This document shows, piece by piece, positions 567-3,038 of a stretch of DNA of 48,151 nucleotides. The stretch is from a virus (Duplodnaviria > Heunggongvirae > Uroviricota > Caudoviricetes). A program made the position numbers and the translations under genes. Location of the stretch: the IMG/VR virus record IMGVR_UViG_2617270976_000012, positions 1 through 48,151 of that record. One strand, written 5' to 3'. How positions within the stretch are numbered: position 1 is the first letter of the stretch; each line of letters starts with the position of its first letter. The notes below the pieces were generated by a model. The model worked only from the letters and a program-made list of their open reading frames with translations. It had not been told where the DNA came from and made no database searches.

Positions 567-3038
567 TTAAGAATCAGCCTGACTCGGGATCAGTTTTTGC
601 CAGATAACTGAAACGTATTTTGCCTGGTAACGGGCGTCATCAAGTGCATTATGGCGCTCACCTTCGAATGGAATAGCCGTTCTGGCATCGAAGTCTATGG
701 CTTTCCCCAGCTCAACGATTGTGCGTACATCGCGATCGTTGTAGTAACGCCACGGGCAGGGGATCCCCTGCCGTTCGTATGAACGGCGCAAAATCGTGTT
801 GTCGAAGTTGGCTCCATTTCCCCAAACCTGAACAAAAAATTCACCGGAGTTTTCGTCGATAAATTCCCGCAATTGTAACAGTGCATCATCTAACGGGATT
901 TCACCGGTCATAATGGCAGATTGCGCTTCGCGTGATTGCTTAAGCCACCATTTAATGGTGTCCCGATCAATGACTCCGCCAGCAGTTTCCAGATCGATAG
1001 TCTTACTAAATTCCGGTCCCATATCTCCGGTTTGCGGATCGAAAAATATTGCACCTATTGAGATAAGCGGGGCATCGGGATTTTTTCCCATGGTTTCAAG
1101 GTCGATCATCATGTGGTGCCACATTCTGCTGGTGGATGTGATTTCTTGATGACCGTTCACCTTAATTGAGTGATCTGCCGTCTCGCCAGTTTCATTATCG
1201 CTATCGTGATGCTGATTGCCGCCAGTGTTCTCCTTGTGTGGATGTTCAGCGCCTTCCATTTCCTCCGGATCATCTTCCTGAACTTCAGGCTGATACTCTT
1301 CATCGAATGTTTCCTGGTATGTTGCGTCGCCCATTACCGCGCCACAATCAGGGCAGTTGCCGCCGCCGGTCTGACCGCAGGCGGTGCAGACTTTTTCCAC
1401 TTCCTGTTGCGCCACTGATTCAGGCTGTTTCGTTTCTGGCTCGTTTTGTAACGCATTTGGGCTGTTTTGTTCCGCTTTCTGGTCGTTCTGTTCCGTTTCT
1501 TGCTGGTTCTGGTTCACAGAATCGCGGGTCTGGTTCCCCTTAACCCATTTCGGATCATTCGGGTCGCTAATCCCTTCAACAAATTCACCACGTGATACTG
1601 CAAGCAGTTCATCGGCGTCAGGCTGGCTGATATTGGCTGCCTGCATAATTTTGTTTACTTCGTCAGCGGTAACTTTTACTGGCTCTGGTTGTGCGGTCGT
1701 GTCAGATGCACCAGTATTTTGTTGTGAACCTGAGTATGTACCGTTTTTACGTGCGAAGTATTCCTCTTTCGTGATTTCCGTAGCTCCCAGGGCCAGTGCT
1801 TTTTCCAGACCAGAAAGTTTGTTTGCGCGACCGTATTTTTCGCCGTCCTTATCGGTGAAAAGGAAGTAGAACGGTCCCTCACGCTCTACAGATGGTTCGT
1901 CTTCCACTTCGCATTCGGTTTTTTCGTTGTCCGGCATTGCCGTTTCCACTGCATCAGTTTCTGGTACTGGTGACGAGAGAGTACCAGTTGCGCTCTGATT
2001 TGTTCCTTCATCTTCAAACACGCCCTTTGTAGTCAGGTATTCAGTAATGTATTTGTTCAGTGCCACAGGGTCTTTGTGAATGTCGATCGGACGTTCACGG
2101 ACAAGGCCAAAAATAGTCTGGCGGTCGTAGCGAAGGGCATCAGGCTGTTTGCGCATTGATGCCGAGATACGCTTCCAGTCTTCGCGGTCGTTGTCGATAA
2201 CTTCATTTTTTGCCCAGCGATGGATGCTGCCGTCAATGTTTCCGGCATCCACATCACCAGGCCAGAGAGCGTAGGCCAGTTCGTCATCCAGTGTTTTCCA
2301 TGTCTGCTTGTATTCGCGATGAATGGCAGCAATGACCGGGTTGATTTTTCCTGTTGAATTTTCAGTGTGCTGTTGATTGGCTCTGGCGCGGGCGAGATCA
2401 ACAACAGACGTGTATTTTCCGGCTTCCTTGCGTTCACCTTCGCGACGTTTTTTCCAGATGCGCATCTCTGCCTGAATTTCGGGCCATTTGGCACCAGGCT
2501 TACATTTATGCTTAACCCACCCGATGGCATGCAGCTTAAGCTCCGGATACATGGCGTTAACTTCTGGCATTTTCATCAACGCTTCAACGATATGTCCGTC
2601 GAATGTTGCCATGTCTTCCTGCAACAGTTCCTGCGCGCTAATCACCATATCAACGGTGATGTTTTCACATGTGTCGAACTTAACCATGACAGCGTTCTGT
2701 ACTTCAGGGGCCAGCTTGTCAAAAGTGACGTTCATCGGATCTGATTCAGTCTCAACCGGGACAAAGGAAGCAGACTCCTCATCCCAGCGGTTTTCCTGCA
2801 TATATTCAGCATCCCAGGAATCTAGGGCAGGGCGGGGTATACCGGGTTTATCCTCGCAGACAAGAAATTTATAAGCGCAGTCCTGAGCAGCCGGATAATG
2901 TTCCAGGAATTGCCAGTGAAATTTTGCGCGGGCGCGACGTTCATCACCGGCTTCAATGGCAGTGGCTACAGCGACGGCACCTTCTTCCTTTATTGCCTGT
3001 TCGTCCGGAATGGCGGCGCAAATAAAGACTTTACTCAT
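567..3038 (-). CDS. Large prophage exonuclease (the type annotated exodeoxyribonuclease VIII / RecE-like in E. coli prophages) with C-terminal DEDDh (DnaQ-like) 3'-5' exonuclease domain
   Basis: 823-aa ORF; C-terminal MIDLETMG...WGNGANFDNTIL...HNALDDARYQ motifs typical of DEDDh exonucleases; central acidic/Q-rich linker with CxxC..CxxC; position at distal end of leftward early operon. Confidence 0.6.
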   Translation of the reverse strand: MSKVFICAAIPDEQAIKEEGAVAVATAIEAGDERRARAKFHWQFLEHYPAAQDCAYKFLVCEDKPGIPRPALDSWDAEYMQENRWDEESASFVPVETESDPMNVTFDKLAPEVQNAVMVKFDTCENITVDMVISAQELLQEDMATFDGHIVEALMKMPEVNAMYPELKLHAIGWVKHKCKPGAKWPEIQAEMRIWKKRREGERKEAGKYTSVVDLARARANQQHTENSTGKINPVIAAIHREYKQTWKTLDDELAYALWPGDVDAGNIDGSIHRWAKNEVIDNDREDWKRISASMRKQPDALRYDRQTIFGLVRERPIDIHKDPVALNKYITEYLTTKGVFEDEGTNQSATGTLSSPVPETDAVETAMPDNEKTECEVEDEPSVEREGPFYFLFTDKDGEKYGRANKLSGLEKALALGATEITKEEYFARKNGTYSGSQQNTGASDTTAQPEPVKVTADEVNKIMQAANISQPDADELLAVSRGEFVEGISDPNDPKWVKGNQTRDSVNQNQQETEQNDQKAEQNSPNALQNEPETKQPESVAQQEVEKVCTACGQTGGGNCPDCGAVMGDATYQETFDEEYQPEVQEDDPEEMEGAEHPHKENTGGNQHHDSDNETGETADHSIKVNGHQEITSTSRMWHHMMIDLETMGKNPDAPLISIGAIFFDPQTGDMGPEFSKTIDLETAGGVIDRDTIKWWLKQSREAQSAIMTGEIPLDDALLQLREFIDENSGEFFVQVWGNGANFDNTILRRSYERQGIPCPWRYYNDRDVRTIVELGKAIDFDARTAIPFEGERHNALDDARYQAKYVSVIWQKLIPSQADS

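Follow-up and report, generated by a model that had tools for sequence, protein, structure and literature searches.

A RecE-type non-catalytic region joined to a DexA-type DEDDh nuclease domain in a common Escherichia coli prophage protein

RecE of the Rac prophage (exonuclease VIII) has its nuclease domain at residues 564-866, and its N-terminus is of unknown function (PMC11611040). It combines a PF06630 N-terminus with a PF12684 PD-(D/E)XK nuclease of 5′-3′ polarity, and recT lies adjacent, after recE. Another phage enzyme, T4 DexA (PDB entry 8KEL), is a 3′-5′ DNA exonuclease that works in double-strand-break repair (intron homing) (PMC12153337), and for EcD or 'HREX', a stand-alone E. coli protein of the DexA family, Kang et al. 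(2025, PMC12153337) report cleavage of 5hmC DNA and protection from T4. In lambdoid phages, DnaQ-like nucleases have been reported within Rec modules, for example the 'DnaQ' of epsilon34, and phage Tritos is the prototype of a nuclease-only, Chi-rich class of such modules (PMC12315714, Table 1); single-gene Rec modules were termed 'somewhat suspect' in the same work, according to which 3′-5′ ssDNA exonucleases usually inhibit homologous recombination (PMC12315714).

Here we analysed a gene that occupies the recE position in a lambdoid prophage, using a window of 48,151 nucleotides, namely positions 1 to 48,151 of the Caudoviricetes record IMGVR_UViG_2617270976_000012. As summarized in Table 1, the gene, here called exo, is the intact 823-aa open reading frame that the preliminary description had reported, and a GAGG lies 11 nt upstream of its ATG. 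The protein shared 92 to 94% identity over its full length with Tritos gp27 and the mEp460 exonuclease, both of 823 aa (92% for the Tritos copy, which lies in the same gene order), and the allelic differences from these copies fell mainly in aa 261-640. At a coverage of at least 80%, exo was found in 3,534 of 5,426 complete E. coli genomes (65%), with as many as 10 matching places in a single genome, and full-length ORFs were present in thousands of genomes as well as in plaque-forming phages. Database copies are labelled 'exonuclease' or '3′-5′ exoribonuclease', and a PHROG of its own and newer Pfam families already exist. The gene is an already known, very common and annotated E. coli prophage gene, and its fusion architecture, a RecE-type non-catalytic part followed by a DnaQ/DexA-type nuclease, is a correct call that has already been catalogued. 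Our literature search found no experimental work, either biochemical or genetic, on the protein.

Table 1. Features of the exo locus in the window
Feature	Coordinates	Strand	Basis
IS1 end (insA ORF 1..276; terminal repeat ends at 331)	1..331	-	InsA translation
Excisionase gene xis (DUF1233), cut by IS1, directly downstream of exo	332..494	-	Pfam PF06806, E 4e-20
Mosaic 'exonuclease' ORF (exo), complete, 823 aa	567..3038	-	ATG start; stop codon 567..569; PHROG 2082
Predicted DEDDh 3′-5′ exonuclease domain (aa 642-813), Rv2179c/DexA family	600..1115	-	Pfam PF16473, E 2.1e-66
Chi octamer GCTGGTGG (exo codons 635-637, linker/nuclease junction)	1128..1135	+	
Homology to the non-catalytic part of Rac RecE (aa 262-625 = RecE 278-591)	1164..2255	-	BLASTP, 5e-61
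Putative 4-Cys zinc-ribbon motif CTACGQTGGGNCPDC (aa 551-565)	1344..1388	-	Read from sequence
Small beta-hairpin/helix domain (aa 388-435, GPFYF..GRANK..EEY)	1734..1877	-	pLDDT 75-90 in both AF2 runs
Folded N-terminal scaffold (aa 1-345)	2004..3038	-	AF2 with diverse alignment, mean pLDDT 80; phrog_5943
DUF1482/YdfD gene	3134..3322	-	Pfam PF07358
DicB gene	3319..3507	-	Pfam PF05358

The nuclease domain covers the last ~180 aa of the protein. It matched the PF16473 profile ('Rv2179c-like 3′-5′ exoribonuclease') at positions 2-177 of 177 with 223.5 bits against a gathering cut-off of 27, and the catalytic pentad was complete (D646, E648, D746, H796 and D801, arranged as D-x-E ... D ... H-x4-D). 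Across 64 diverse homologues, these five residues were conserved in 64, 64, 64, 64 and 63 sequences, respectively. No match to PF12684 (DUF3799, PD-(D/E)XK) was detected in the protein by Pfam, a family that Rac RecE matches at aa 615-850. The preliminary description had read the C-terminus as DEDDh rather than PD-(D/E)XK, and this reading was borne out, as the Pfam search assigned the C-terminal part to PF16473 and no alignment to the RecE nuclease was seen. The best, and the only, relative found by PDB sequence search was T4 DexA (8KEL, E 6e-6), in which D7, E9, D119, H186 and D191 align to the pentad in the order given above; Rv2179c was absent from the matches at E≤1. The active site is an intact one of the two-metal DEDDh type, and a 3′-5′ polarity is predicted. 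For an internal start that could yield a stand-alone nuclease, Met639, Met643 and Met644 were considered, and none of them had a Shine-Dalgarno-like sequence at a suitable spacing upstream.

Upstream of this domain, the protein was 39% identical to Rac RecE overall and 75 to 87% identical within aa 481-600 by BLASTP, and the homology ended at RecE residue 591, just short of the PD-(D/E)XK core. The NCBIfam RecE equivalog model NF007259 gave a partial match only (aa 444-625), with 278 bits against a cut-off of 1269. This middle region is mostly acidic and Q/N-rich, with disorder predicted beyond aa 345 from low pLDDT, and the linker at aa 501-640 contains 22% D+E and 21% Q+N and just 5% K+R. 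The acidic Q/E-rich linker with CxxC..CxxC noted earlier was hence confirmed in composition, and its motif proved to be shared with Rac RecE, which carries it as CNACGQTGGDNCPDC at aa 517. The spacing C551-x2-C554-x7-C562-x2-C565 was invariant across 10 close homologues, and among more distant fusion proteins the motif was present in a subset only. The hairpin domain at aa 388-435 is missing from Rac RecE, where the BLASTP alignment has a gap, and is conserved in scaffold homologues.

The first 260 aa are unlike the N-terminus of Rac RecE, and PF06630 had no match in the protein at E≤1; that family is present in Rac RecE, in HK225 gp34 and in the 813R8 allele. When a diverse alignment was used, AF2 modelled the N-terminal scaffold as an alpha/beta domain (aa 1 to ~100) followed by helical domains at aa ~110-206 and ~245-345; the full-length run with 10 near-identical homologues had a mean pLDDT of 35 and was usable only at aa 388-435. 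Elsewhere the same scaffold carries PD-(D/E)XK (P0138) or, in P0143 and others, a Rad52/Rad22-like annealase domain, which ties it to recombination functions, and many independent fusion architectures terminate in the same DEDDh domain. The Rad52-like assignment comes solely from precomputed PF04098 matches and from 'Rad52/Rad22' names on close homologues, since the candidate domain reached PF04098 in Pfam at sub-threshold level only (E 0.028 and 0.12) and PDB sequence searches with it, as a single sequence and as a profile, gave no match. The protein had been described as having two parts, a view that had to be given up: comparison of alleles shows a mosaic in which three or more modules have been exchanged. 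Judged by dN/dS values of 0.05 to 0.48 (0.05 to 0.16 for aa 1-260 and 0.19 to 0.48 for the DEDDh domain), purifying selection acts on the folded modules, and the linker was near-neutral in some comparisons (up to 0.8 to 1.3).

In agreement with the preliminary assignment of a RecE position, exo lies in the lambdoid early-left operon between the dicB/kil region and xis-int. The DicB and YdfD genes are upstream in the same leftward operon, in an order that recurs in Tritos, mEp460 and prophages, and the gap between exo and xis is 72 bp with no gene in it. IS1 lies 236 bp downstream of the exo stop codon. Its end in the window was 99.7% identical to the annotated IS1A of L003, and it also matched the IS1 terminal sequence exactly. 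The PF06806 match in the xis fragment covers profile positions 1-49 of 70, and window positions 332-700, up to the IS1 end, are 99.7% identical to mEp460, in which xis, with int behind it, comes immediately after this exo stop codon. From this match to the mEp460 exo-xis region, IS1 truncated xis, 163 nt into a gene of 252 nt. Gene order dicB-ydfD-exo-xis-int without RecT was found in intact phages (mEp460 and Tritos) and in other prophages, and no annealase or recT gene was present in six relatives (Tritos, mEp460, 813R8 and three IS1-free prophages), in all of which exo directly precedes xis and int. Nor was any annealase family detected in the window's scanned early-left, replication and nin-region ORFs, which upholds the earlier remark that no RecT/Bet-like annealase is seen downstream. 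That remark had left the partner as either absent or lost with the IS1 event; the first part stood, and the second was contradicted by the mEp460 junction and by five independent relatives that have neither that IS1 nor any recT. By comparison with these relatives, the absence of an annealase gene from the operon is native rather than a loss caused by IS1. Two-component ('SynExo') recombinases are recognized by an adjacent gene for a single-strand annealing protein, none lies next to exo, and its product is probably not a two-component recombinase of the RecE/RecT type. Such recombinases also resect 5′-3′ to leave 3′ tails, and the domain family of the exo protein predicts the reverse polarity.

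The locus resembles the class typified by Tritos, in that a nuclease is present and genes for a SAP, an SSB and anti-RecBCD functions are absent from the early-left operon. Chi sites are also abundant, mostly co-oriented and clustered toward the right genome end, as in that class: the window contained 12, against 2.5 ± 1.5 expected, and none of 100 shuffles reached 12. Ten were on the + strand and two on the - strand, and 11 of the 12 fell at 11.9 to 22.2 kb, before the terminase genes. These data showed that Chi is enriched in the phage's right arm. Five alleles, among them some whose N-terminus differs or whose nuclease is divergent, have retained the Chi octamer inside exo at identical codons. 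Stand-alone homologues of aa 641-816, 55 to 58% identical and of the same Pfam family, were found in mEpX2 (gp31) and Salmonella phage g341c (gp29), where they lie between ssb/erf and abc2.

We propose, with modest confidence, that the product of exo is probably an exonuclease that trims DNA at 3′ ends, in a phage dependent on host RecBCD and RecA. The gene lies in the early-left (pL) operon of a lambdoid prophage of the Tritos/mEp460 type, and its modular product consists of the folded scaffold, a largely disordered acidic linker bearing the hairpin domain and the 4-Cys ribbon, and a C-terminal DEDDh domain standing where RecE has its 5′-3′ PD-(D/E)XK nuclease. During lytic growth it would remove nucleotides from DNA 3′ ends, as T4 DexA does, and as the only phage-encoded nuclease of the recombination module it would leave strand exchange to host RecBCD-Chi-RecA. 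Such trimming could process DNA ends either by blunting 3′ tails for RecBCD loading or by removing non-homologous 3′ ends, and the RecE-type scaffold may supply targeting or oligomerisation rather than catalysis. The targeting role is a guess, since a structural-neighbour search with the N-terminal scaffold returned nothing informative, and co-operation with RecBCD is an inference from the Chi counts only. Against the proposal stand the doubts voiced in PMC12315714 about single-gene Rec modules and the usual inhibition of homologous recombination by 3′-5′ ssDNA exonucleases. The label 'recombination' exonuclease, which derives from the gene position and from the stand-alone homologues inside Erf-SSB-Abc2 modules, is tentative.

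An unlikely alternative is that exo is a prophage defence nuclease, whose DEDDh domain, like EcD, would degrade the modified (5hmC-type) DNA of superinfecting T-even phages, so that a benefit to the lysogen keeps the gene in many prophages, including defective ones. The activity described for EcD fits this idea, exo is intact within a prophage already crippled by IS1, and its prevalence in E. coli genomes, in so far as defective prophages contribute to it, could reflect such a benefit. EcD is, however, a different protein: the primers used for it give a start of MIDTET... and an end of ...TIPETY, and among the stand-alone homologues that we fetched none matched these termini of EcD (HAK9828821.1). 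Moreover, Trp152 of DexA, reported to recognise 5hmC, corresponds to Tyr766 in the exo protein (in this column 35 of the 64 homologues have Trp and 12 have Tyr, and the DexA D169 region aligns poorly), PADLOC found no defence-system model for exo or its small neighbours, and in the still-plaquing Tritos and mEp460 the gene sits far inside the leftward operon that the repressor controls rather than in a moron-like position. The location of stand-alone homologues within recombination modules argues against defence and, with ssb and abc2 as their neighbours, for DNA transactions. The latter point also bears on a reading that we consider quite improbable, in which the enzyme is a 3′-5′ exoribonuclease acting on the 3′ ends of RNA or on short oligoribonucleotides (for example host or phage transcripts, sRNAs such as the DicF-type neighbour, or nanoRNAs) and not on DNA. 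PF16473 is named for an RNA exonuclease, Rv2179c, which counts against DNA trimming, many database copies carry the exoribonuclease name through PGAP and Pfam, and DEDDh enzymes often accept both DNA and RNA (PMC11706625). The sole PDB sequence-search relative is nevertheless a DNA exonuclease, and fusion to a RecE-derived scaffold, on which this domain alternates with a DNA nuclease or an annealase, points in the same direction.

Two further explanations treat the locus as damaged. Inert decay, in which a RecE fragment accidentally fused to a nuclease domain would be non-functional, might account for the near-neutral linker and the damaged host prophage, yet the intact pentad, the low dN/dS of the folded modules, the full-length ORFs in so many genomes and plaque-forming phages, and the many independent fusions ending in the same domain render it very improbable. 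Loss of an annealase gene through IS1 from a two-component recombinase of the RecE/RecT type was suggested by the short distance from exo to IS1 and by the place of recT after recE in Rac; IS1 interrupts xis and not recT, the mEp460 junction and the IS1-free relatives refute the deletion, and its probability is negligible.

Going beyond the proposed 3′-trimming function, the N-terminal scaffold (aa 1 to ~440) could conceivably be an adaptor that is indifferent to its catalytic module and delivers any module, be it a 5′-3′ PD-(D/E)XK nuclease, a 3′-5′ DEDDh nuclease or a Rad52/Rad22-like annealase, to one shared target, for which DNA ends, the replisome or a host factor such as RecBCD or SSB would be candidates. 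In annealase-less, Gam-less, Chi-rich phages, the DEDDh version might in that case be dedicated to assisting RecBCD-Chi recombination of the host, by blunting or trimming 3′ ends. We regard this extension as speculative and rather doubtful; if true, it would represent an uncharacterised phage recombination strategy with a polarity opposite to that of Red and RecET. The gene is among the commonest of E. coli prophages, including Stx-phage-related elements, and many records still say 'exonuclease VIII', which implies a RecE-like 5′-3′ activity unsupported by sequence. If the 3′-5′ polarity and the link to RecBCD and Chi hold, they would show how DNA ends are handled in a large class of annealase-less lambdoid phages, and confirmation might also explain what RecE does with its enigmatic N-terminal two-thirds, a matter of relevance for recombineering that uses the full-length protein.

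Compared with the known systems, Tritos gp27 and the mEp460 'exodeoxyribonuclease' (the CP-933P-type prophage exonuclease) are the same protein with only allelic differences, although the downstream xis is cut by IS1 in the window, unlike in those phages. Rac RecE shares the leftward-operon position and the homologous middle region with its 4-Cys motif, whereas the exo protein differs at the N-terminus, ends in a DEDDh domain of predicted 3′-5′ polarity and has no recT beside its gene. T4 DexA belongs to the same DEDDh subfamily, with catalytic residues corresponding one to one at ~25% identity, but it is a stand-alone protein of 227 aa with extra loops, while the exo domain is fused to a scaffold; EcD, another DEDDh protein of the DexA family, is likewise stand-alone and differs in sequence. 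Rv2179c of Mycobacterium tuberculosis shares the Pfam family and the DEDDh motifs and is a cellular stand-alone enzyme described as an exoribonuclease; a literature search for Rv2179c together with phage found nothing relevant. Finally, the DnaQ-like nucleases of mEpX2 and g341c are stand-alone proteins of ~182 aa encoded in early-left operons and flanked by erf, ssb and abc2, whereas in the exo protein the nuclease domain is carried on a 640-aa RecE-type scaffold without erf, ssb or abc2 partners.

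The exo gene, which carries a GAGG 11 nt upstream of its start codon, was examined by Pfam scanning of its product, the window protein. Amino acids 642-813 matched PF16473 ('Rv2179c-like 3'-5' exoribonuclease domain') over the full profile with an E value of 2.1e-66, and the generic RNase_T/DnaQ model gave a second, weak match. A PDB sequence search yielded as sole relatives 8KEL and 8KEN, two variants of a 227-aa exodeoxyribonuclease, the phage T4 enzyme DexA (PMC12153337). When 64 diverse homologues were aligned, D646, E648, D746, H796, and D801 shared columns with DexA D7, E9, D119, H186, and D191, and the pentad was conserved in 64/64 sequences at each of the first four positions and in 63/64 at D801. 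Since the Pfam match is accompanied by alignment of the catalytic residues, the C-terminal DEDDh signature noticed in the preliminary description is real and complete, and it resides in a bona fide domain.

The same description held that the C terminus has no PD-(D/E)XK core and proposed a domain search of both halves. Rac RecE (exonuclease VIII of K-12), scanned in the same way, contains PF06630 at the N terminus and the PD-(D/E)XK-like PF12684 at aa 615-850, whereas Pfam found neither in the window protein, assigning its C terminus to PF16473 instead of the RecE nuclease. BLASTP aligned aa 262-625 to residues 278-591 of K-12 Rac RecE (5e-61), with an identity of 39% overall and 75-87% within aa 481-600. 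This homology ends at the start of the RecE nuclease, a domain reported to span residues 564-866, the remainder being of unknown function, and linear-linear recombination is better with full-length RecE (PMC11611040). The RecE-homologous stretch includes the linker (aa 501-640), which is acidic and Q/N/E-rich (22% D+E, 21% Q+N, and 5% K+R), and its CxxC..CxxC motif, CTACGQTGGGNCPDC, which is common to Rac RecE, whose counterpart is CNACGQTGGDNCPDC. Residues 1-260 bear no relation to RecE PF06630 and have their own PHROG (phrog_5943), and the window protein scored 278 bits against the NCBIfam exonuclease VIII equivalog, below the cut-off of 1269. Having in common with Rac RecE only the non-catalytic middle of the latter, the window protein is not a RecE.

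We then compared the gene neighbourhood with that of related phages. Window positions 332-700 are 99.7% identical to phage mEp460_ev081, whose exonuclease gene precedes a 252-nt xis, which in turn precedes int; therefore, IS1 cut xis 163 nt in, and removal of a gene between exo and xis by IS1 is ruled out by the same comparison. The order dicB - ydfD/DUF1482 - exo - xis - int recurs in mEp460, in phages Tritos and 813R8, and in two IS1-free prophages (L002 and L005), while prophage L003 has kil upstream of exo and a DUF4224 gene where xis would be. No recT was found in the Tritos, 813R8, L002, L005, or L003 loci. Rac differs, its order being recE - recT - ralR - rcbA - xis - int. Among the remaining early-left ORFs of the window (DUF1482, DicB, one unknown, DUF1391, RelE/RelB, and the repressor) and its replication and nin ORFs (including DnaC-like ATPase, DUF1627, DUF977, Ea22-like, DUF968, RusA, and Q-type antiterminator, plus three with no Pfam match), Pfam detected no annealase, SSB, or anti-RecBCD family. 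The earlier observation that no RecT/Bet-like gene lies downstream was thus confirmed, while the suggestion that such a partner had been deleted by IS1 is refuted, as the element interrupts xis and the relatives lack recT; the annealase partner is, by this comparison, natively absent. The window begins inside IS1, before any int gene; with xis truncated, the prophage has probably lost the ability to excise.

Features of the window
Feature	Position	Strand	Remark
IS1 end	1..331		insA 1..276; terminal repeat ends at 331
DUF1233 excisionase fragment, 55 aa	327..494		downstream of exo
exo ORF, 823 aa	567..3038	-	uninterrupted, ATG start
Lone outlying Chi	1128..1135		codons 635-637 of exo
Sub-threshold STnc100 match	3475..3693		31 bits (gathering 47)
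DicF-like stretch	3498..3827	-	83% identical to Tritos stretch annotated as DicF sRNA plus flanks
RelE/RelB toxin-antitoxin pair	4838..5316		between repressor and early-left genes
Chi cluster (11 of 12)	11986..22231		nin-Q-lysis region just before terminase genes
hok/sok-type locus	12061..12386		Rfam sok, 112 bits
Three tRNA genes	16388..16634		downstream of Q-type antiterminator
STnc100 sRNA	17475..17684		146 bits
Tail regions read by translation	38547..39683, 40100..42250		porin-like ORF and following stretch
J-like gene	42256		

At the DicF-like stretch, Rfam did not match DicF itself and returned just the STnc100 hit. In the tail module, the ORF directly after what are presumably the tape-measure and M-like genes resembles an OmpC/NmpC-type porin at its N terminus, by translation alone, and is followed by about 2.5 kb with no convincing tail-gene ORFs up to the J-like gene; this points to an insertion or rearrangement.

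Chi (GCTGGTGG) is strongly over-represented in the window, with 12 octamers against 2.5 +/- 1.5 expected, a number reached in 0/100 shuffles, and 10 of the 12 are on the + strand. This excess is consistent with the published pattern for lambdoid phages lacking anti-RecBCD functions. The outlying Chi sits exactly where the RecE-type linker meets the DEDDh domain and is kept at these codons in five alleles, among them that of 813R8, with another N terminus, and that of L003, with a divergent nuclease; no Chi octamer occurs in Rac recE. Its position may be coincidental, owing to the conserved T-S-T-S-R coding sequence, or may bear on module exchange.

Comparison of alleles shows at least three exchangeable modules in the window protein. 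The 826-aa allele of L003 has 90-100% identity up to aa 520 and just 55-77% in the nuclease domain. The 813-aa allele of 813R8 (L007) has a PF06630-type N terminus; it shows no relationship before about aa 440 and 67-100% identity from there on. Homologues were collected as representatives of 50%-identity clusters (11,666 matches at E<=0.001, 266 at E<=1e-30), and a domain census of these representatives revealed many independent long fusions ending in a DEDDh domain and bearing either type of N terminus; the 4-Cys ribbon is limited to the E. coli-type subset. The window-type N-terminal scaffold is joined to a PD-(D/E)XK domain in P0138 and, in at least six clusters (P0136, P0143, P0151, P0155, P0170, and P0221), to a Rad52-like candidate domain of about 210 aa, whose close stand-alone homologues have precomputed PF04098 (Rad52_Rad22) matches and the name 'Rad52/Rad22 family DNA repair protein'. 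These scaffold-Rad52-like fusions, with which the Pectobacterium phage ZF40 match H64 was grouped, are labelled 'exonuclease' by PHROGs. They possibly correspond to the nuclease-less 'RecE-2' proteins referred to previously (PMC12315714), in which case 'RecE-2' proteins would be annealase fusions. Pairwise dN/dS was 0.05-0.16 in aa 1-260 and 0.12-0.23 in aa 261-440; the nuclease gave 0.19-0.48 and the linker 0.3-1.3. These values indicate purifying selection on the folded modules and relaxed constraint on the linker.

The window protein thus combines an intact DEDDh active site with a conserved scaffold, and it is encoded in the pL operon of a Chi-rich phage having neither annealase nor anti-RecBCD genes. 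DEDDh enzymes catalyse two-metal hydrolysis from the 3' end, and the domain is very probably an active 3'-5' exonuclease. Its main substrate is likely to be DNA; T4 DexA digests DNA in the 3'-5' direction and contributes to the repair of double-strand breaks in intron homing (PMC12153337). A true RNase is what the family name would suggest, that name being the one argument for it. The scaffold can be tied to recombination because its alternative partners are a 5'-3' nuclease or a Rad52-like annealase. We tentatively propose, with slightly less than even confidence, a role in recombination or end processing, in which the window protein would trim 3' DNA ends during lytic growth, acting beside host RecBCD/RecA and not in partnership with a phage annealase, and its RecE-type scaffold would supply targeting.

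A defence role like that of EcD ('HREX'), a stand-alone E. coli homologue of DexA (cf. PMC12153337), was also considered. Against it, EcD is a different protein, DexA Trp152 is replaced by Tyr766 in the window protein, no PADLOC match was obtained, and exo lies inside a repressed operon. Decay of the window protein is contradicted by the dN/dS values and by its prevalence: 23,183 sequences belong to its 90%-identity cluster, and by megablast 3,534 of the 5,426 complete E. coli genomes carry at least 80% of exo, the median number of matching places in a genome being two.

Protein-family databases already list this architecture. The window protein has an end-to-end match in PHROG 2082 ('exonuclease'), its names across sources are '3'-5' exoribonuclease', 'exonuclease', and 'putative exonuclease VIII', and its precomputed domains include PF27430 and PF27432, newer than the Pfam copy used here. 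In Pseudomonas phage LKA5 (2983..6541), genes for a Rad52-like candidate, DUF1351, an RNase_T-family DEDDh exonuclease, and ssb occur together, a further case of a 3'-5' DEDDh nuclease inside a putative phage recombination cluster. In mEpX2 and Salmonella phage g341c, a stand-alone version of the window protein's DEDDh domain (55-58% identity) is encoded between ssb/erf and abc2. The 'Tritos' functional type has been defined as having a nuclease but no SAP, SSB, or anti-RecBCD, together with 7-21 Chi sites on the top strand (PMC12315714, Table 1); Tritos itself encodes an 823-aa copy of the window protein, 92% identical, and this published class covers phages with the same exo gene.
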